Positions 4,194-64,000 of a DNA stretch of 64,000 bases are shown one piece after another; within the stretch, counting starts at the first letter, position 1, and each line of letters begins with the position of its first letter. Made by a program: the position numbers and the translations under genes. The stretch is from assembly GCA_951406725.2 (NCBI GenBank), contig OX597814.1, positions 65,906,001 to 65,970,000 of the forward strand, given 5' to 3'. Source of the DNA: Octopus vulgaris (Eukaryota). Below the pieces are notes generated by a model. It did not search any database. It had not been told where the DNA came from and saw only the letters and a program-made list of their open reading frames with translations.

Positions 4194-5486
4194 CGAGGGG
4201 AGTTCAATAAGTAATGCCCCTGACCCACTTCCCATAGCAGTAGAGCAACGAAACTTGGCACAGTTATTGATCTTTTTCTACATAGGAACCACTCGGAGTT
4301 ACGCCTTTCTCCCATCGTTTAATGCAGCTCTGGAGACCGTTTTTGTAGAAGACCCCAGCTTGGTCCTCCAACCACGACGTGACTTCAGAAATCAAGGCTG
4401 CATCATCTGGGAAACACTTTCCTTTCAAAAACAACTTCATGACTGGGAAGAGGTGAAAATCAGAGGGTGCAAGGTCAGGAAAGTAGGGGTTTGGGGGAGG
4501 AGTTCATAGCCATACGCCCGTGCTTCTGATCTGGCGACAAGCGAGTTGTGGACCGGAGCGTTGTCCTGCAGGAGGAGGATGCTTTTGCTGATCTTGCCCC
4601 GCCTCTTGATTTTGATAGCTTCTCTTAATTTCCTCAAATGTGAAGCATAATAGGCTCCTGTAATTGTGGTACCCTTTTCCAGGAAATCTGTCATCATTAC
4701 ACCGTCCTGGTCCCAGAAGACTGTGAGCATGATCTTGCCAGCTGAGGGCTGCACCCTTGCCTTCTTTGGAGGGGGGTGAGTCACGGTGCTTCCACTGCAT
4801 TGACTGGGCTTCGGTCTCTGGATCATAGTGATGGACCCAGGTGTCATTCTGTGTAATCAGTCTTTTGAAAAATTTTGACTCATCTTCTTGGCACATCTCC
4901 AAATTCATCCTCGAGCACTCGACGCGTTCTTGCTTCTGGAAAGGTGTGAGCAACCTGGGAATCCATCTGGCAGACACCTTTTGCATATGCAAATAGTCAT
5001 GAAGGATAGTTTCTACAGACCCGGTACTAATCTTGACCTCATGAACTATTTGGCGAATAGTTATGCGTCGATCTTCCAAAATGGCAGCCTCAACTTGACG
5101 GACAGATACCTCATCAATGGCAGAAGTGGGGTGACCAGATCTGGGAGCTGTTTCCACAGAGTTCCGACCATGTTTTAATTCACGATGCCAGCATTTTACA
5201 AGGTCATATGGTGGGGCATCATCACCATAAGTTACTTTCATTTCAGCAAAGGACGCCCGTGGTATGCATCCTTTCAAATACAAAAACCGGATCACTGTTC
5301 GACACTCAACAGGCTCCATTTCACACTTGACTCAGTTAAAACACTTGTAAATCAGAAACCACAATTAGTTCAGAGCTGTGATTTGCTACTTAATCTATAG
5401 AGACATCAATAATTGCACATGCAAAATTTCAGCTAGATCAAAATACTGCAAGTGGGCCAGAGGCATTACTTATTGAACACCTCTCG
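4194..5486 (-). mobile_element. Tc1/mariner element copy 2, full length (~1.29 kb), inactive
   Basis: TIRs CGAGGGGAGTTCAATAAGTAATGCC / GGCATTACTTATTGAACACCTCTCG, flanked by TA (4192-4193, 5487-5488). Transposase starts at 5319 (MEPVECRTVIRFL...WIPRLLT) and has frameshifts. Confidence 0.96.
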
Positions 5487-14038: not shown

Positions 14039-14200
14039 CTCCACGATAGTAATACACTTTTTACGTAGGCAAAGAGAAAAACAATGGAATTAAGTAATTA
14101 AAGCACTTTAATCTCGAAACGCGTCTGTGGCTAATGGGAGTCGTGTTGATTCATTGTTTTTCTCTTTGCCTACGTAAAAAAGTGTGTTACTGTCGTGGAG
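14039..14200. repeat. Fold-back (48-bp arms) of a PLE pLTR with the 3' half of an HHR (GAAA CGCG TC) in the spacer
   Basis: 14039-14086 is the reverse complement of 14152-14200; followed by a pLTR segment (14220-14400) related to 27510-27550 and 63430-63590. Confidence 0.7.
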
Positions 14201-14515
14201 AGAAAAGGAATTTTTAATTCTTATTTCTAAATTCGGTGTGTAGTGAAGCAATTAGATGACCCCTAATTATAATTATGTTTTTAATTAAAGAATATTTGTA
14301 TAATTTTACCTATAAAGGTTATTTTAACCTACTGATCTACTTGGTAAAATTGTTAATTAATTGATTAATTAATTAATTAAATTAATTTTACCCTTTTATT
14401 ATTAATAAACACCACCATCCTCACTGGCACCCATTCCTTTACTTACAGCTGCAGTAATGTTATTTACTATACCTCCTGCTCTCTCTCTCTCTCTGTCTCT
14501 CTCTTTCCTTTCCTT

Positions 14516-14760: not shown

Positions 14761-15252
14761 TCTGACACGAACCCCACACACCTCCCACATTCAACTTCCC
14801 CCTTCACCTATACACCTGCATACCAACTACCTCGGTACCGTCGCCACACACACACACCACTCTACAAACACCCATACACACTGTTCAACTCATTACTCAC
14901 TTCACCCACCGTTACACCAGCACTCCACCAAACACTTTCCAATTTCACACACTTGCACCGAACCCTTCTCATTACCCATACCACATATCATTATCCACAC
15001 ACCCACACCCAATCTCCAATAGCGTCAACGCACATACCACTATCCGAGCAGCCACACACGCTGTTTAACTCAGTACAGACACCGCACACCATCATGCATA
15101 CTCCCACACCCACACAATACCTGAACACACGTATGTGTGGACAACGCAACCCAGCTAAGTGAAGATATCGACTCTAGTCGATTTAGACATGTACATTTTA
15201 TAAAGTTACTTTCTATAGTATTTCCGAAATGCAGATTCCCAGTTAAGTGAAC

Positions 15253-26872: not shown

Positions 26873-26875
<3 letters not shown>

Positions 26876-27268
26876 GTCGTATACTGTCAACTCAATGTGA
26901 CAGTCCCGTAAGGGAATTACACCACCGCCATTTAGCCCTAGGAGACATCGACGTCTCCTATCGGCTTTGACATATTTTCTGTGTCCTTATATTTGCAAAG
27001 GGGAGGCAATCACCTTCGCAAGCCGGGACAAGGCACCTGAAGACATAGCGAGGCAGGCTACCCTGAACTGACGATGAGCAATACATTCAGAAACATATGT
27101 CTTCGGGTGCCTTTTCCCGGCTTGTGGGGGTGATTGCCTCCCTTTTTGCAAATATAAGGACACAGAAAATGTGTCAAAGCCGACAGGAGACGTCGATGTT
27201 TCCTAGGGCTAAATGGCAGTGGTGTAATTCCCTTACGGGACTGTCACATTGAGTTGACAGTATACGAC

Positions 27269-27320
<52 letters not shown>

Positions 27321-27420
27321 TCTTTTACTAGTTTCAGTATGAGTTGACAGTATACGGCCACTATATCGCTTCACTACCGCTTATGTCTCTCTGAGACATT
27401 TAGAAATTTAATATTTCTAA
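26873..27420. mobile_element. Fold-back PLE-type element (175-bp inverted arms, HHR at apex) plus trailing pLTR piece
   Basis: 26873-27047 is the reverse complement of 27096-27271; flanked by (TA)n; second family member at 42501-42925. Confidence 0.85.
27062..27107 (+). ncRNA. Minimal type I hammerhead ribozyme
   Basis: cctgaa CTGACGA tgagcaatacattca GAAA catatg TC ttcggg; all core nucleotides present. Confidence 0.85.
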
Positions 27421-27422
27421 TA

Positions 27423-27491
<69 letters not shown>

Positions 27492-27677
27492 TAAGTAATT
27501 AAAGGTTTAGCAACGAATTGCCTCACCACACACCGAATTTAGAAATAGCAGTCAAAGAGTTATAGCTATTCTTTCTACTAAAAGGGAGATCTCAGTAAAA
27601 ACACAGCACTTGAAAGGCAAACACAGACAGGTAAGAGAGAATGAAATGACGGCAATCTATCATACAATTTTAAGTCA

Positions 27678-27768
27678 CCTACGGACGTACGTTTCGAAAT
27701 TAAGTTTTAGGAAAGCATAAGAATTAGATAATTATGTCTTACCCAACTTCTTTTCTCATCAGCGTAGG
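27678..27768 (-). ncRNA. Type I hammerhead ribozyme, extended helix II
   Basis: Minus strand: cctacg CTGATGA gaaa..(52 nt)..tttc GAAA cgtacg TC cgtagg. Confidence 0.88.
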
Positions 27769-28260
27769 ACACTAAAATTATGAATAATTGTATATTAAAT
27801 TTCGAGATACTAGAAGGCATCATCTCAACTCAGTATCAGAGTGAGCTAAAGCCGTTACCAGTATCACCAACTTCAAAGTGTGAATGAAAGTTTGTGTCAC
27901 CAACCCCTTCCCACCAGCGTGTAGCCAAGACAAGATGCTGTGGTCATTTACTGGGATGAAATATGGTTATCAATAATAATATAGGGTGAAATTAATTAAT
28001 TTGGAATAATCATTATTTACACCAAGTAGATTTCGGCATGTAAAAGCCTCATTCGAGGAAAGTTTAAGTAATACTAAGTAATTAAGGGTTTAGCAACGAA
28101 TTGCCTCACCACACACCGAATTTAGAAATAGCAGTCAAAGAGTTATAGCTATTCTTTCTACTAAAAGGGAGATCTCAGTAAAAACACAGCACTTGAAAGG
28201 CAAACACAGACAGGTAAGAGAGAATGAAATGACGGCAATCTATCATACAATTTTAAGTCA

Positions 28261-28351
28261 CCTACGGACGTACGTTTCGAAATTAAGTTTTAGGAAAGCA
28301 TAAGAATTAGATAATTATGTCTTACCCAACTTCTTTTCTCATCAGCGTAGG
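28261..28351 (-). ncRNA. Type I hammerhead ribozyme, identical second copy
   Basis: Same sequence as 27678-27768, 583 nt away. Confidence 0.88.
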
Positions 28352-28465
28352 ACACTACAATTATGAATAATTGTATATTAAATTTCGAGATACTAGAAGG
28401 CATCATTACTTGGTGTAATTAATGATTATTCCAAATTAATTAATTTCACCCTATATTATTACTGA

Positions 28466-28525
<60 letters not shown>

Positions 28526-30483: not shown

Positions 30484-31723
30484 CGAGGGACGTTCAATAA
30501 GTAATGCCTCTGACCCACTTGCAGTTGTTTGATCTAGCATGGGCAATCATTCATATCTCTATAGATTGAGTGGCAAATTACAGCTCTGAATTAATTGTGG
30601 TTTCTGATTTACAGGTGTTTGAACCGAGTCAAGTGTGAAATGGAGCCTGTTGAGTGTCGAGCAGTGATCCGGTTTTTGTATTAGAAAGGACGCACACCAC
30701 GGGAGACTTTTGATGAAATGGAAGTAACTTATGGTGATGATGCCCCATCATATGACCTTGTAAAACGCTGGCATCGTGAATTCAAACATGGTCGGAACTC
30801 TGTGGAAACAGCTCCCAGATCTGGTCGCCCCTTCTGCCATTGATGAAGCATCTGTCCGTCAAGTTGAGGCTGCCATTTTGGAAGATCGACGCATAACTAT
30901 TCGCCAAATAGCCCATGAGGTCAAGATTAGTACCGGGTCTGTAGAAACTATCATTCATGACCATTTGCATATGCAAAAGGTGTCTGCCAGATGGATTCCC
31001 AGGCTGCTCACGCCTTTCCAGAAGCAAGAACGTGTCGAGTGCTCGGGGGTGAATTTGGAGATGTGCCAAGAAGATGAGTCAAAATTTTTCAAAAGACTGA
31101 TTACAAAGTCCAGTCAATGCAGTGGAAGCACCGTGATTCACCCCCCCCCCAAAGAAGGCAAGGGTGCAGCCCTCCGCTGGCAAGGTCATGCTCACAGTCT
31201 TCTGGGACCAGGACGGAGTAGTGATGACAGATTTCTTGGCAAAGGGTACCACAATTGCAGGAGCCTATTATACTTCACTTCTGAGGAAATTAAGAGAAGT
31301 TATCAAAATCAAGAGGCGGGGCAAGATCAGCAAAAGCATCCTCCTCCTGCAGGACAACGCTCCGGTCCACAACTCGCTTGTCGCCAGATCAGAAGCACAG
31401 GCGTATAGCTATGAACTCCTCCCCCATCCCCCTACTTTCCTGACCTTGCACCCTCTGATTTTCACCTCTTCCCAGCCATGAAGTTGTTTTTGAAAGGAAA
31501 GCGTTTCCCAGATGATGCAGCCTTGATTTCTGAAGTCACGTCGTGGTTGGAGGACCAAGCTGGGGTCTTCTACAAAACGGTCTCCAGAGCTGCATCAAAC
31601 AATGGGAGAAATGCGTAACTCTGGGTGGTTCCTTTGTAGATAAAGACTAATAACTGTGCCAAGTTTTGTTGCTCTACTGCTATGGGAAGTGGGTCAGGGG
31701 CATTACTTATTGAACGCCCCTCG
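30484..31723 (+). mobile_element. Tc1/mariner element copy 3, inactive
   Basis: TIRs with TA flanks (30482-30483, 31724-31725). ATG at 30640 with an early TAG; a deletion near 31105 removes the QDETWVHHYDPET segment (first catalytic D). Confidence 0.95.
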
Positions 31724-34004: not shown

Positions 34005-34080
34005 ACTCTACTGAGGATTCGAAAATGATTATGTAAGTAAAATTACACAATCTATTAACGATGAAACAATTGTATAGAGT
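34005..34080 (+). ncRNA. Type I hammerhead ribozyme, extended helix II
   Basis: actcta CTGAGGA ttcg...cgat GAAA caattg TA tagagt; perfect 6-bp helix I; lies in a pLTR-like segment (33970-34340) between (TA)n tracts. Confidence 0.82.
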
Positions 34081-36018: not shown

Positions 36019-36519
36019 TATTCCAAAAATTTTACCATAAAGGCATGATACAGAGTAGCTTGCGGGCTGGACAAAGGCATTGATGCGGTGAATGATGATA
36101 AGGATGGAAGAAGACAAAAAACCCCGCCAATTTTCTGCTTCTCTAAAACATTATTCTCTTATTTTTTTCTACTGAAAAAGACAAAACGAGGTAATGATGC
36201 ACGTACTTCAATTTTACAGATTTTGGACTAATAGTCCATTTATGAATTGGGGCGTTAGTCCTCTTAAACACAATAACATACAATAAACATTAAACATTGT
36301 AACACTGAGGCTTTTCAAACTCTTGTCATTATTCCTCCCCGTCATCGCTTGTGCCCGTAAACTCCACCATCCCCCCCACGCCTCGTTCAAGACTAAGGTG
36401 GGTTCCGAGCTGGCGTCGCCCGGCCACAAGCGATATTCCTCATTGAGTTCCTGCAGTCTAAACCCCATAGACACCGTTGTGACCTCCACAGCTATCTGCA
36501 GAGGCCATTCGGGATCCTG

Positions 36520-36966
36520 GGGCCTCTCTGAAAAGATACAAAAGGTATGCAGTCCATATGACATCAGGACAGTATTCAAGAGTAATACAACACTTTGCAA
36601 ATATCTCCTTCGAGTAAAACAACCAATAGAAGATAATATGACCAAAAACTGCGTGTACTCCATCCCATGCAGCTGTGGTAGGTTATACAAAGGCGAAACA
36701 TACCACCCCCTCAAAATGAGGGTAGCCGAACATCGCAATGCTGTGACACGCGGAGATATTGATAAACCGGGTATAGTTGAACATGTATGGAAAAATGGAA
36801 ACCACCTCCCCCTGTGGGATGAAGTTATAATAATAGACAGAGAACACCACTGGAAAATACGAAAACTAAAAGAAGCAGCATATATGCTAGGACATAACAA
36901 CCTTTTAATCAGACCGACTGCAGATGTGAATGGCATATGGGAACCGGTATTAAGGAAGATAGGAAA

Positions 36967-37034
<68 letters not shown>

Positions 37035-37186
37035 TGATAATAACATCGAAAAATATCTTAGGAATGAGAACCCAGGTCGAAATTTGCCCAAGTCACCTGA
37101 TGAAGGTTGGAGGATATATCAACCGAAACGTTGTGTTAAGAACAAACAAGATGAGGACAAATATCCGTCAAATGTAAATAATGTAA
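36520..37186 (+). mobile_element. PLE (Penelope/Poseidon-type) 3' fragment: GIY-YIG + (AAT)n + pLTR
   Basis: GLSEKIQKVC..VFKSNTTL..VYSIPCSCGRLYKGET..LKMRVAEHR..RKLKEAAY; HHR downstream. Confidence 0.88.
37094..37135 (+). ncRNA. Minimal type I hammerhead ribozyme
   Basis: cac CTGATGA a ggttg gaggatatat caacc GAAA cg TT gtg. Confidence 0.78.
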
Positions 37187-42410: not shown

Positions 42411-42500
42411 CACACACATACACGTTACGCGCAAATGCATATATATTTGCGTGTATACATGTAAATTTGTGCGTGTATATATATATATATTTATATATAG

Positions 42501-42920
42501 AGTGGTTGTATACTGTCAATTTAATGTGACAGTCCCGTATGGGAAATACATCACCGCTGTTTAGCCCTAGGAAACATCGACATCTCCTGTCAGATTTGAC
42601 ACATTTTCTGTGTCCTTATATTTGTGAAGGGGAGGCAAGCACCCCTACCAGCCAAGATTCACACCTGAGGACATGCATGTTTCTGGGTCTTAACCCGTCA
42701 TCAGCCCAGGATAGTGAGATCTGCTGATTGAGGTGCCTTCACAAATATAAGGACACAGAAAATGTGTCAAAGCCGACAGGAAGCGTTCGATGCTTCCTAG
42801 GGCTAAACAGCGGTGGGGTAATTCCTATACGGGACTGTTACGTTAAGTTGACAGTATACAACCACTCTATCGCTCCACCACCGCTCATGTCTCTTTGAGA
42901 CATTTAGAAATTTAATATTC

Positions 42921-47539: not shown

Positions 47540-48430
47540 CTATCTGTTTTCTTTAGGGGACCAAAAACGTAACAGAAACTTAGTCACATGTGGGCATGAT
47601 CCGAAAAGCTCTGTCCTTGTATTTAGACATGTAGTAGGGTCTAAGCTGCTTTTCCAGATAAGCCATCTCTCCATGTCGCATAGACCGCACCTTCCGCTGC
47701 CGTTAGTATAGGGCTTACATCTGGCCAAAATCTTCCATTGCATGTTATAATCGACACCTTTATCTCTTAAAGACCAAATATGATTAGACAATTGTGTCGC
47801 TTTTCTTTTGTTCCAGTGCCTAAAGCTCAAAGTGTGGTTATTGAACCTGGCCTTGAAATTACCCTCTGTAAGGCCCACGTATTTCTTCGTCGAAACGGTG
47901 TCTTTAGTGGTTATAGAGTTTACGGTAGCTTCATATATGATGGTCTTGGACATGCAAGCTCCCTTTAGCGGGCACAATTCTTTATTCCTGCATGAACAGC
48001 TGTTTTCTTCTTGTGTTTTTTGTATGTTATGTTTGATTATGTTTTTAAAATTGGTAGTTGAACTAAAACTAATTTTTAAATTGTGTCTATTGAAGTGTTT
48101 CCTATAAGTATGGTTAACTGGAAAATGTCTCTCTATCAGTGCTAGGAAATATTTACCTATATTGAAGGCCACCTCGGGTGAGTAAGGGGGCGTAAACCAG
48201 ATGACCTTCCTATTTCTATTATTCCTTTTCTTTACTGTTGGGCTAGTGATAGGTGTATATTTTATTTTATCGCTAAAACCACTATCTTTTAAAGCATTAT
48301 TATAAACTGGGGCAACGCTATTGAAGATGTCCTCATCAGATGAGAGGCTAGAAATCCTCTTACTAATATTTTTAACTAAATTTTTGAATACTATAGGGGG
48401 ATAGCCGGAACGATGCGGGAAAGTACAAAC
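47540..48430 (-). pseudogene. 5'-truncated PLE ORF (thumb/linker + GIY-YIG), still open
   Basis: HRSGYPP..ISKRISSLSSDE..NRKVIWFTPPYS..CSCRNKELCPLKGAC..IIYEATV..YVGLTEGNFKARFNNH..CGLCDMER. Confidence 0.88.
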
Positions 48431-48500
48431 AACATACATGCATACATACATACAAATATATATATATATATATATCTATACAATATGTTACATTACTCGG

Positions 48501-48574
48501 TAGTCAAGATAAAACTCTGAGTTTCAGATGCCGAAGTGGAAATCCACAACACCATCTCTTCGGTTATCTGGCTA
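48501..48574 (-). ncRNA. Hammerhead motif, CCGAAGA variant (copy 2)
   Basis: Near-identical to 47277-47350. Confidence 0.72.
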
Positions 48575-48873
48575 TTTGAAAACGTTATGAAAAAATACCG
48601 TTAAAAATGAAGGGAAATTACTCTGTTATAACTCTGCTTTGCCTGCGTACTTATACATCACTCGCATTTTTCGTCATAAAAATTATATAAAAATACATAA
48701 AAATATATAAAAATATATAAAAATATATAAAATCTTCTTGGGACATAACACAGAAAGCATGTTCTATCCGTTTTCTTTAGGGGACCAAAAACGTAACAGA
48801 AATTTAGTCACATGTGGGCATGATCCGAAAAGCTCTGTCCTTGTATTTAGACATGTGGTAGGGTCTAACATAA

Positions 48874-49427
48874 TCAATAGACACAATTTAAAAATTAGTT
48901 TTAGTTCAACTACCAATTTTAAAAACATAATCAATCATAACATACAAAAAACACAAGAAGAAAACAGCTGTTCATGCAGGAATAAAGAATTGTGCCCGCT
49001 AAATGGAGCTTGCATGTCCAAGACCATCATATATGAAGCTACCGTAAACTCTATAACCACTAAAGACACCGTTTCGACGAAGAAATACATGGGCCTGACA
49101 GAGGGTAATTTCAAGGCCAGGTTCAATAACCACACTTTGAGCTTTAGGCACTGGAACAAAAGAAAAGCGACACAATTATCCAATCATATTTGGTCTTTAA
49201 GAGATAAAGGTGTCGATTATAACATACAATGGAAGATTTTGGCCAGATGTAAGCCCTACACTAACGGCAGCGGAAGGTGCGGTTTATGCGACATGGAGAG
49301 ATGGCTTATCTGGAAAAGCAGCTTAGACCCTACCACATGTCTAAATACAAGGACAGAGCTTTTCGGATCATGCCCACATGTGAATAAATTTCTGTTACGT
49401 TTTTGGTCCCCTAAAGAAAACGGATAG
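48874..49427 (+). pseudogene. Inverted duplicate of the PLE GIY-YIG region
   Basis: NRHNLKISFS..YMGLTEGNFKARF..WSPKENG; near-identical to the minus-strand copy. Confidence 0.88.
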
Positions 49428-54404: not shown

Positions 54405-56972
54405 TGTATAAGGAAATTAAGACAAGGTAGGAAATGCTAGAATAATCTTATCATGAAATGCACCTTTTAACGGTTTTTACCGGTTTCAGGCTTTTCCACT
54501 TTTCCAACTAAGAGTAAAACAAAGGTGGATACTAACTGAGAAGAAAAAATTAAATTGATGAAAAAATTAAATGAAATGCTTTGTAAATATTTCCATAGTC
54601 TTCAAATAGGTAGACTATTTTCCTTTTTTCTGCCTGTCTCTCGTTCTCTCTCTCTCCTTCTCTCTCCCTCTTCCTTTGTGAAGCCTTGGTAGGTAGAAGC
54701 AGATCTGAAAAAATAGTGTTTATGGGTGCAGCGAAATATTTACTTCTGAAGTTTGATGGTTTATGCAGCAGCAGCAGCAGCAGTAGATGAAGAAGAAGAA
54801 GAAGAAGAAGAAGAAGAAGAAGAAGAAGAAGAAGAAGAAGAAGAAGAAGAAGAAGAAGAAGAAGAAGAAGAAGAAGAAGATGGGATAGTATGACCCAGTA
54901 GTGGAGGAATCTACTTTAATGGTCAAATGACCTAAAAATGATCTGTTCTGATTGTAGCAGTAATGGTTGTTCGAAATAAATTCATAGGTAGCGACTGTTT
55001 TCAATATATCTATAGTTTTTAATATTTGCCTGGGTATTATTGCAAGATCCTAGCAGTAATGTCATTTGTGGTGGACGTATTCAAACGTGTTTCATATTTT
55101 GTGATAAAATATGATTCTTTGATAATGCGTAGATTATAGGTTGCATTGTCCTTAAATTTATAGAGGGGAAAATTCTAAAGTTGGGTTGTTCAATAGTGGT
55201 GCAAATGTCAATGTGTTCTCTAAATGCTATTTTTCTGTATTCTTGTATTTCAATCTATGATCTGGCATAGACTGTTTTTAGATAGACCAATGTATTGCTC
55301 TCGACACCCTGAGCAAGTCAACACATATCAGGTTTTCCGATGCGCAAGTTGTTTTTCACTGTAAAACGCTGAAGCTGCTTGAAGAACTCTGATCCCTCAA
55401 TTAGTTTGACGCATATACCACAGTCAGGTCTTTCGCATTTTATACTGTCGGTTTCGAAAGTGTACTTGGGCTTGTGTTAGAATACATTTTTGGGAGTTGT
55501 CTTTTGCTCTTTATGATGCGTTTGGAGAAATTGATTCATTCTATGATCCCTTTTTAGTAAAGGAATGTTCTGGAGGATAGTGTCGAAGGCCTTATTTTTT
55601 AGAGGGTTGGGTGTGGATATGTATGGTAGGGCTTTTGGTTGTAATTCATTCTTTAGTCTGGGGTGTGTGAGTTCTTGGATATTGTGCTGTAGGGCACGTT
55701 GAAAACCTATATCAATTAGGGATAGTGGGTAATTCCTGCTGATGAGAGTATCTTTTAGCTCCTATAGTCGTGTGTCCATGGTGCTTGTATCGGATACTAT
55801 AGTGCAAATCTTTTTTTGCGAGGTTGAAAGGGATTCATTCATTCTAGTGTGTCTGGGGTGTCATGAGTTGAACGGTAGATATTGCTTGGAGTCCGTGGGC
55901 TTCTAATAAATGTATGTTTCTACTTGGATTTCTTAATGGGAATGTCGAGGAATGGAAGTTGTTGATAAGTATATTCCATAATAATTTGAACGTTTTATGT
56001 CAAGTCCATTTAGAAGTGTTTGAAATTCTTTAAGTCTCTCTATACTTTCATGCCAAAGAATGAAGCAGTCATCTAGATATCTCTTCCACTTATTTTCTAT
56101 GTGAAAGGAGAGTGGGTTTCCGTATTTTTCTAGTACCTTACGATAAAGAGTGATTTCTAGGTACCACATGACTAGGTTAGCACAGGATAGCATTCTCGTA
56201 GCCATACCAATCCCGTCATACAACTCCCTTCTTCTTCTTCTTCTTCTTCTTCTTCTTCTTCTTCTTCTTCTTCTTCTTCTTCTTCTTCTTCTTTTTTTTC
56301 TTTTTCTTCTTCCTCTTCTTCTTCTTTTTCTTCTTCGGCTCCTGCTGCTTAAACCACCACAATTCAGAAGCAAATATTTCTCTGCACCCATAAACACTAT
56401 TTTTATCAGATCTGCTACTACCTACTGAGCTTTCGCAAAGGAAAAGTGAGACAGAATAAAGGAATATGTCCTACCTATTTGAAGACTATGGAAAAGGAGT
56501 GGCTGTGTGGTAAGTAGCTTGCTTACGAACCACATGGTTCCGGGTTCAGTCCCACTGCGTGGCACCTTGGGCAAGTGTCTTCTACTATAGCCTCGGGCCG
56601 ACTAAAACCTTGTGAGTGGATTTGGTAGACGGAAACTGAAAGAAGCCCGTCGTATATATGTGTGCGTGTATGTTTGTGTGTCTATGTTTGTCCCCCGAGC
56701 ATTGCTTGACAACCGATGCTGGTGTGTTTATGTCCCCGTCACTTAGCGGTTCGGCAAAAAAGACCAATAGAATAAGTACTGGGCTTACAAAGAATAAGTC
56801 CCGGGGTCGAGTTGCTCGACTAAAGGCGGTGCTCCTGCATGGCCGCAGTCAACTGACTGAAACAAGTAAAAGAGTAAAAGAGTAAAACATTTAATTTAAT
56901 ATTTATCATGAAATAATATATTTCATAATAAAATTATTTTAGAATTTTCTACCTTGCCTTATTTTCCTTACA
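54405..56972 (-). mobile_element. Degenerate PLE (RT + endonuclease remnant at 54880-56225) with inverted terminal arms
   Basis: GIGMATRM..WYLE, WKRYLDDCFILW, PFLDI, KPTDSKQYLPFNS. 54592-54880 pairs with 56229-56492, including (GAA)n/(CTT)n. A SINE interrupts the right arm. Confidence 0.82.
56495..56886 (+). mobile_element. SINE family A, well preserved
   Basis: AGGAGTGGCTGTGTGGTAAG..GGTTCAGTCCC..ACCTTGGGCAAGT..(AAAAGAGT)n tail. Confidence 0.92.
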
Positions 56973-57944: not shown

Positions 57945-58625
57945 TGCCGGTGTTTCTCCTTCCCCTACCCACTGTCTTTGGCGCGTGATATTTTTATAGA
58001 GGACTCATTTCTCGTCACCAGTCACAATTCGGTCGAAAAAAGGTTCATTCGTGACCCGTAACAACAAGGAATAGCACAGTTCCAATCTCAACGCGCGATT
58101 AGACTCGGAAAGTTTGAGAGGAATCCATTGACACAATTTGTTCCCTTTTCCGATGGCATGCAGGTGTCGTTGAATGTTTGAATAACCAAATCCAAGCTCC
58201 TCTTCTTGGGATTTTACGATGGGATTTTCTTTGCAAGTCTCCTCGTCGAGCTCTACTGACCTTCCAGTACGAGACTCGTCTTCTAGGCTGTAGTTTCGGG
58301 TTCGGAATTTCTGGAACCACCGTTGACACTGGCTTACGTTTATTGTCCGAGCCCCATATACTGCATTAATATTCCTCGCAATTTCTGTTCTGTTGTTGCC
58401 TTTATTGAACTCAAAATATGCCGAAGATGCTCCTTCGTCTCTTCCATTATAGCTTTGAAAAAATAACTGTTGAAATCGAGTACACTCTTCAAAATTTACA
58501 CTAAGAATAAGCAAGGTAAAATTTCTACCTGCTTTTATAACAAGTTGATGCAGGTAGTTTATCCCTTCCGCCGCCGTCTTTTACTGCATCTAATTGAAAA
58601 AACCGCATTATTTATAAGATGACCA
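57945..58625 (-). mobile_element. Mariner (second family) 5' part, decayed
   Basis: EFNKGNN..CQRWFQKFR..WIPLKLSE..RIVTGDEK; TIR TGGTCATCTTATAAATAATGCGG next to (TA)n. Confidence 0.88.
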
Positions 58626-63156: not shown

Positions 63157-63429
63157 CTATAGAAACCATACCAAATCAGCCATAGAACATGGTGGTGCCT
63201 TCTGGTTCATCTGTTTTTGTCAAACCATCTAATCCTTGTCAGGGACATTAAATGATAATGATGATGATACATTTTATGAATATGTGCATCTTTTATCTTT
63301 TTCTTTTTTCAGTGATTAGACAGTGCCATGCTGGGGCTTATCTTGAAGAATTTTAGTTGAACGAATCGATCCCAGTAGTTTTTTAACGCTTAGTACTTAT
63401 CTGATATATATATATATATATATATAATA

Positions 63430-63900
63430 ACAAAGGGTAAAATTGATTAATTAACTAGTAATTAATAATTTCACTAGGTAGAATTCGGCATGAAAAAGGA
63501 CCATTCTCGGTAAACTTAAGTAATATTTTATAAATAGGGTTCCGCAAAGATTTGCTTTACCGCATACCGAAGTTTAGAAATAGCAGCCAAAGAACCTTAA
63601 CTATTTCCTCTATTTTGAAAAGAGACTCCCGGACAAAAACAAAGTACTCGAAAACAATCCACGCAGGCAGAGAGGAAAAATAACGAAAATCAATCGATAT
63701 TTGATTACCCATGTACGCGTTTCGGAATTAGATCGGTATAAAGAATGTAGAATTTATACTTTACCCAAACATTTTCCTCTTCAGCATGGGACTTCACAAT
63801 ATTAAATCCGAAAGCACTGGAAGAATTGAATATACCTCTCCAACTAACAGTATCAGACAGATCATATTCAACGTCCAATACCGCCGAATTCAAAATATAC
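63430..63900 (-). mobile_element. pLTR element related to the 27489-28469 family
   Basis: AGGGTAAAATTGATTAATT..TTCGGCATG..ACCGAAGTTTAGAAATAGCAGCCAAAGA aligns with 27982-28140; begins at (TA)n. Confidence 0.72.
63708..63790 (-). ncRNA. Type I hammerhead ribozyme, extended helix II
   Basis: Minus strand: cccatg CTGAAGA ggaa...ttcc GAAA cgcg TA catggg. Confidence 0.87.
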
Positions 63901-64000
63901 GAATGAGGTTCATCACCTCCCCCTGCGCATCCACGTATGTCGTCAAGTAAAAATACTACAGAAAAAATCCGTAGTTTATTATCTGGGAGAAAATTATATT

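Follow-up and report, generated by a model that had tools for sequence, protein, structure and literature searches.

A 583-nt non-coding hammerhead retrozyme of Octopus vulgaris, likely copied in trans by a Hydra-clade PLE

The window analyzed here, a stretch of 64,000 nucleotides of Octopus vulgaris DNA (contig OX597814.1), very probably harbors a young insertion of a dispersed, non-coding retrozyme with hammerhead ribozymes (HHRs), comprising 1.58 units plus an inverted arm and likely copied in trans by a Hydra-clade PLE. This explanation rests on the existence of a genome-wide family, its (TA)n targets, its discrete internal ends, the single haplotype of each insertion, the exact read-through of the cleavage site and physical chimeras with a Hydra-clade PLE. 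Judged by its sequence, the element is a non-LTR retrozyme that agrees with this class in every feature assessed, with cleavage and circularity being predicted. It carries an intact type I HHR in each unit and head-to-tail units with at least two HHRs, is non-coding, has a GC content of 35.5% (that is, <50%) and a unit of 583 nt, and its monomer is highly self-paired in computed folds.

The first-pass annotation had described two direct repeats of about 335 bp lying 583 bp apart, the same intact-core HHR on the minus strand of each, the absence of an ORF between them, a terminal inverted piece of 63 bp and (TA)n flanks, all of which were borne out (Table 1). The repeats measure 336 bp at an offset of 583 and differ only at 27503/28086 and 27775/28358; the discrepancy between 335 and 336 bp is immaterial, as the first 3 bp overlap the TA run. 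The longest stop-to-stop frames within the element span 69 aa (plus strand, in the repeat) and 48 aa. The inverted piece extends to 68 bp when its TA-ambiguous end is included and matches unit 239–301/306, with unit positions being counted from the predicted cleavage site. What appeared as two repeats plus a spacer is 1.58 turns of one circularly permuted, non-coding 583-nt unit, and not an LTR pair. The insertion is bounded by a preferred start of reverse transcription (unit 196) and a 5' truncation (unit 444), and the inverted piece corresponds to the additional arm, on the opposite strand, that PLE insertions typically have.

Table 1. Features of the retrozyme insertion and its flanks, in window positions.
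Feature	Position	Strand	Remarks
Whole retrozyme insertion	27488..28469	-	inverted arm + unit 444-583 + full unit 1-583 + unit 1-196
Upstream 336-bp repeat copy	28071..28406	-	unit 444-583 then 1-196; 5' truncation at unit 444
Downstream 336-bp repeat copy	27488..27823	-	ends at unit 196, the commonest 3' end of the 583-nt family
Type I hammerhead 1	28261..28351	-	CTGATGA 28345-28339; GAAA 28278-28275; predicted cut 28267/28266
Type I hammerhead 2, identical to hammerhead 1	27678..27768	-	core 27762-27756; predicted cut 27684/27683
Predicted 583-nt monomer RNA between both predicted cuts	27684..28266	-	35.5% GC
Conserved structured block (unit ~103-306)	27961..28164	-	contains end sites 196/202 and 299/306
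Inverted 5' arm	28407..28469	+	unit 239-301; blunt junction to unit 444
(TA)n target flank, element's 3' end	27420..27490		
(TA)n target flank, element's 5' end	28470..28524		

Each type I HHR consists of stem I (CCTACG/CGTAGG) and the core CTGATGA, starting at 28345 and 27762, respectively, followed by a 60-nt stem-loop II with a base of 4 bp, GAAA, CGTACG and then TC, and the predicted cuts of both HHRs are spaced by 583 nt. Rfam at gathering thresholds returned no match for the element's HHR, a long-stem-II variant that escapes the model, and the HHR assignment is based on the motif scan together with covariation. Among 21 relatives, two-sided changes were present in 7 of 12 pairs, a value reached by 0 of 500 shuffles, with slid controls giving 0–2; as these relatives share history, the result is to be read as support and not as a P value. 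The helices covary across three families, namely the 583-nt family and the sister families B and C described below. Within the 5' core, C3, U4, G5, A6 and G8 were invariant in 92 loci of an HHR-selected sample, with A9 being altered in three. U4C was present in 20 of 52 cores of a sample of 60 loci picked without regard to the HHR (sample U). This exchange, said to reduce HHR activity in vitro (PMC3088659), recurs in a 778-aa PLE family (L152–L154), in a 717-aa PLE family and in sample U retrozymes, and an attenuated ribozyme may be favored in successful families. Helix III comprises two pairs and a 4-nt loop, with computed energies of +2.4 kcal/mol for the hairpin versus −9.8 kcal/mol for two paired palindromes. 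Given the unfavorable hairpin, the favorable pairing of palindromes and the statement in the available text of PMC4209133 that such short helices III act as dimers in tandem repeats, dimeric cleavage via a palindromic stem III is, as suggested in the first-pass annotation, the established expectation for this element and is predicted here by analogy.

Folded as a circle, the 583-nt monomer reached a computed −145 kcal/mol (z −5.4) with 63% of its nucleotides paired, and the antisense strand of the unit folded at z −1.0. Among the controls, two PLE 3' regions gave z 0.3 and −1.1 and two flanks gave z −1.3 and −3.6, the latter containing microsatellites. We rejected the predicted rod structure as proof of a circle because a linear multimer accommodates the conserved helices just as well. 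The best conserved part of the unit, positions 103–306, contains the preferred end sites and, by analogy with the PLE described in the available text of PMC11167929, is probably what the PLE reverse transcriptase recognizes and where it starts. Immediately beyond end site 306 (window 27951–27960, minus strand; unit 307–316) lies a stretch that is rich in pyrimidines and closes with CAG; it has a similar counterpart in family B and, speculatively, resembles the splice acceptors preceding PLE ORFs. No splice joint at unit 307–316 was seen in the contigs of four runs presumed to be RNA. The contigs of these runs covered 21–26 of 30 bins; as assembled sequences that convey no ends, strand or level, and for want of a silent-stretch control, they carry no weight here for expression.

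In the genome assembly (2.8 Gb, 227 contigs), an HHR motif of 26 nt has 385 exact matches and a motif of 22 nt, taken from unit 125–146, has 2,874, with controls yielding none. The family occurs as part-units, tandems and arrays of up to ~9.8 units (C8 array, L109), with most copies being dispersed part-units. We characterized 84 HHR-motif loci plus one array among the first 100 matches listed (sample H) and, as sample U, 60 loci identified by the 22-nt unit motif among the first 100 matches listed. Ten loci were common to both, giving 135 distinct loci from a family with thousands of matches. In sample H, the 3' ends of the 84 loci fell at unit 196 in 44 cases, at 299 in 10, and at 202 and 306 in six each, and (TA)n was present at the 3' end in 78 of 85. 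An inverted 5' arm was found in 39 loci of this sample, 28 of which had arms ending at 306 (11), 196 (11) or 299 (6), and 12 of the 84 held a full unit between two cut sites. Sample U yielded 3' ends at 196 (22 of 60 loci), 299–306 (21) and 202 (8); 56 of its 60 loci adjoin (TA)n, an inverted arm is present in 24, and in 11 a full unit is enclosed by two cut sites. About 40% of copies carry an inverted 5' arm, which ends at the end sites of the direct arm. The 5' ends of copies are scattered, and repeat length differs from copy to copy.

The family displays the insertion pattern of PLEs, with 3' ends fixed at internal sites, truncated 5' ends, partial tandems, inverted arms and a (TA)n target. 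For PLEs, the available sections of PMC8557442 describe truncation at the 5' end, partial tandem and inverted copies, and targets in microsatellites. Similarly, the green anole Poseidon PLE, as characterized in vitro in the available text of PMC11167929, initiates internally at discrete sites downstream of its HHR, uses AT-rich targets and extends both strands. Poseidon is autonomous and has two start sites 30–40 nt apart, whereas the retrozyme is non-coding and its start regions lie ~105 nt apart; unlike in Poseidon, the ends of the retrozyme share TA-like letters with the target. Hydra-clade PLEs resemble the retrozyme more specifically: according to the available sections of PMC8557442, they target (TA)n (section 11), carry HHRs in terminal repeats and form partial tandems and inverted 5' copies. 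In contrast to them, the retrozyme has no ORF and no detectable match to the terminal repeats of the PLEs tested. In blastn and nhmmer comparisons, no terminal repeat with detectable homology to the 583-nt unit was found in 74 PLE loci from two Hydra-type groups, and no ORF-bearing parent was found among the 135 family loci or in the 74 PLE loci.

Two of the 135 loci (L008 and L230) are chimeras of the retrozyme with a Hydra-clade PLE, in which the 3' end of a PLE, inverted, and a short piece of PLE in sense orientation lie directly on the retrozyme with no intervening TA run. L008 starts with (TA)n, an inverted PLE 3' end of ~800 nt and 172 nt in sense orientation of that PLE; it continues via an 8-nt microhomology into unit 37–63, jumps to unit 335 and runs for 1.9 units into (TA)n. 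Its PLE–retrozyme junction is a template switch at unit 37, not a 3' UTR. L230 has a similar layout with a related PLE end and a junction at the cut site; its PLE piece is 72–75% identical to the PLE copies compared, and 89% in the short sense part. PLE fragments also occur near L031, L044 and L234; lying in antisense or downstream, they were regarded as neighbors. The PLE family of L008 is young, judging from the 97–99% identity among its best copies, and has intact 778-aa frames in three loci. The frame bears RW, DKT and CxxC/CxH and lacks CCHH, which are the marks of Hydra PLEs in the available section 11 of PMC8557442, and the motifs of the 717-aa family also fit this clade. Pfam returned no family for the 778-aa protein and a PDB search gave chance matches only; its identity is founded on the motifs, on 33% identity to the 717-aa PLE and on Atlas clusters with 31–50% GIY-YIG members. 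Relatives of the 778-aa PLE have HHRs with a long stem II and a palindromic helix III, as in the retrozyme. The 778-aa PLE (L152:2787–5120) lacks the CxCX5C linker said to accompany (TA)n targeting in the available text of PMC8557442, even though its copies terminate in (TA)n. The Hydra clade is suggested as the driver, short of proof, by two chimeras in 135 loci. Together with the insertion anatomy, these chimeras support the earlier proposal of mobilization in trans by a PLE.

Tandem units and arms within one insertion are closely matched. At family-polymorphic sites in 98 loci, disagreement was seen at 10 of 232 between tandem units of one locus, at 17 of 270 between the direct and the inverted arm, and at 14,964 of 17,746 (84%) between loci, the pairs being non-independent. 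The low disagreement within insertions implies that each insertion, including both arms, derives from one haplotype. Among genome matches, the cleavage-site junction is exact in 385 cases, with a deletion in one and an insertion in none, so that jumps from the end of one cleaved linear monomer to the next are disfavored as the principal route. At unit 1–2, stops were seen in four of 84 arms versus 0.7 expected (P ~0.006 for an interval chosen post hoc), a weak indication of RNA that ended freely at the cut; an automated count placed three arm stops at unit 1–5. A general excess of 5' ends in unit 1–20 (9 of 84) was set aside, as the uniform null is wrong near start sites. Four young arrays (L216, L220, L245 and L256), some with inverted arms, have at most 4.3 units and 1–9 variable sites, almost all of them singletons. 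The haplotype, junction and young-array results fit a cleaved, circularized monomer, without proving it. Longer arrays are of a different kind, with an alternating two-unit pattern in the C8 array and variants common to several units in L238, indicating that long arrays also grow at the DNA level. As proof of rolling-circle copying, long arrays were therefore rejected for C8 and are doubtful for L238. The higher-order patterns of these two loci show retrozyme insertions becoming satellite DNA.

According to these data, circular RNA is, by a modest margin over even chances, the template we favor. The alternative to the circle is an uncleaved multimer: the family and the PLE driver would be the same, the HHR would be mostly silent or serve in 5'-end trimming, and arrays would arise by unequal exchange. 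To this account we grant a substantial minority share of the probability. A homogeneous array supplying uncleaved multimers could explain the haplotype result without circles, the four young arrays being possible sources, and both the higher-order patterns of C8 and L238 and the frequent U4C cores agree with it, as does the template switching in L008. Moreover, the only PLE assayed in vitro drew mainly on uncleaved RNA as its template, and mutating the HHR left insertion normal (available text of PMC11167929). Multimers would, however, require repeated one-unit bottlenecks to fix variants across all units and both arms. The covariation of HHR helices across three families also speaks against a silent ribozyme, as do the few arms that stop at the cut site and the abundant circles reported for mussel, coral and axolotl retrozymes in the available text of PMC7229834. 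Against cleavage, in turn, the available text of the preprint 10.64898/2026.07.22.740005 gives only one of nine Xenopus retrozyme dimers as cleaved in vitro.

Two further explanations deny the family its independent RNA lineage. If the unit were no more than a terminal repeat or 3' UTR left by an autonomous PLE truncated at its 5' end, then the missing 5' parts, the partial tandems, the inverted arms and the (TA)n targets would all be accounted for as PLE features (PMC8557442, available sections), and the 135 loci do sample a family with thousands of matches. We nevertheless rejected a truncated autonomous PLE and consider this origin unlikely, since none of the 135 loci continues 5' as the 3' UTR of a sense RT-GIY-YIG ORF; upstream sequence instead goes round the 583-nt unit or stops. 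The closed unit is shared by sister families B and C, and the lack of matches in the terminal repeats of the 74 PLE loci likewise opposes a PLE origin. The retrozyme or non-autonomous PLE reading of the first-pass annotation thereby gains support as an independent family. Satellite DNA spread at the DNA level, with an incidental HHR-like motif, is more improbable still: arrays do expand at that level, but most copies are dispersed part-units that have inverted arms, end at fixed sites against (TA)n and are truncated at random at the 5' side, and the RNA folding is strand-specific and the HHR covaries. A plant LTR retrozyme was rejected as well, because the HHR is of type I and repeat length varies between copies. 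Plant LTR retrozymes (PMC4918200), as summarized in the available literature, share two HHRs ~600 nt apart within direct repeats; in contrast to the octopus element, they have type III HHRs, true LTRs, a PBS, a PPT and 4-bp target duplications.

The closest known systems are the animal non-LTR retrozymes. Those in the available text of PMC7229834 likewise have tandem non-coding units with one type I HHR each and GC <50%, no LTR, PBS or PPT seen, a short palindromic helix III, a strongly self-paired predicted circle and PLEs in the same genome. They differ in having units of about 170–400 nt or, taken more widely, 150–450 bp, as opposed to 583 nt and an extended 60-nt stem-loop II here, and their circles have been demonstrated, whereas ours are predicted from sequence. 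Unlike theirs, the octopus copies are mostly dispersed part-units with PLE-type inverted arms. The element also has two consecutive units with complete HHRs, which is the definition used in the available text of 10.64898/2026.07.22.740005, and its unit lies within the range of 51–972 bp given there, with PLEs co-occurring in both cases. The PLE link of that preprint, which in its available text covers 35 species and no mollusc, consists of co-occurrence and homology to PLE terminal repeats in Xenopus. In the octopus, by comparison, the PLEs tested show no detectable homology, and the link consists of insertion anatomy and physical chimeras. A literature search, comprising main texts without supplements and few subscription papers, found no account of the 583-nt family or of retrozyme–PLE chimeras.

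Related lineages exist in the same genome. Family B (window 63424–64000, minus strand, and L110) has a unit of ~570–595 nt that is 67% identical over its whole length, an intact HHR with a shorter palindrome, CGCG, in helix III, and a tandem with an inverted arm. Family C (L143:1003–1809, minus strand) has a 560-nt unit that is 58% identical over its whole length; shuffled controls for these whole-unit alignments gave 35–46%. On the ribozyme strand, B folds at z −4.0 and C at z −8.7. Both families keep the unit length, the closed unit architecture, the HHR covariation and the strong ribozyme-strand folding. At L143, family C and a 785-aa Hydra-type PLE frame face each other head to head, separated by short TA runs.

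The window holds further elements of this kind. Window 26873–27419, adjoining the element, belongs to a separate repeat family with a type I HHR core at 27068 (plus strand), a CATATG helix III and an inverted arm. A second HHR copy of this family occurs at ~42498–42870 (minus strand), and a first look yielded ~2,600 candidates genome-wide. It is likely a second retrozyme family, with L269 suggesting a short, circularly permuted unit. Another HHR at 34011 (plus strand) has a CAATTG helix III and, after it, motifs similar to the conserved unit block, and 14107–14413 is a decayed relative of the 583-nt family. Window 47540–49427 and L181–L210 represent an inverted pair of the abundant, young Hydra-type PLE with 717-aa frames and many near-identical copies, whose HHR core is CCGAAGA (U4C) and whose helix III is non-palindromic. 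Frames at 4504–5331, 30764–31408 and 58005–58580 resemble fragments of mariner-type transposases, and those at 1765–2223, 36287–37177 and 55933–56421 resemble fragments of PLE RT/endonuclease.

In the mechanism we propose for the retrozyme, a transcript through two HHRs would self-cleave, probably as a dimer via the palindromic stem III, releasing a 583-nt monomer that would then be ligated into a circle. A PLE endonuclease would cut both (TA)n strands, and the reverse transcriptase would prime from each cut within the RNA, at unit 196/202 or 299/306. A direct arm, which may exceed one unit, and an inverted arm would thus be made and then joined. More tentatively, and with somewhat less than even confidence, we envisage an old lineage of circular RNA replicons of 560–595 nt that has lost homology to PLE terminal repeats and is copied by rolling-circle reverse transcription, with one Hydra-clade PLE complex priming both (TA)n-cut strands on one and the same circle and, at times, also on its own mRNA.

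Animal retrozymes are already known, and the questions on which this family bears are the mobilizing enzyme and the circle as template; the available text of 10.64898/2026.07.22.740005 calls the mechanism of their mobilization unresolved. On both questions there are genome-level signs, comprising fixed start sites of the PLE type, a single haplotype for each insertion, exact junctions at the cut site and chimeras with a PLE of a named clade. The family is a non-LTR retrozyme whose unit is long and whose genomic evidence on mechanism is unusually clear, and it supplies a concrete protein–RNA pair for in vitro work. If the circular-replicon reading is true, the chimeras would be a direct genomic record of the enzyme that mobilizes animal retrozymes, and the intact 778-aa protein and the 583-nt RNA would be the pair with which to reconstitute retrotransposition from a circle.
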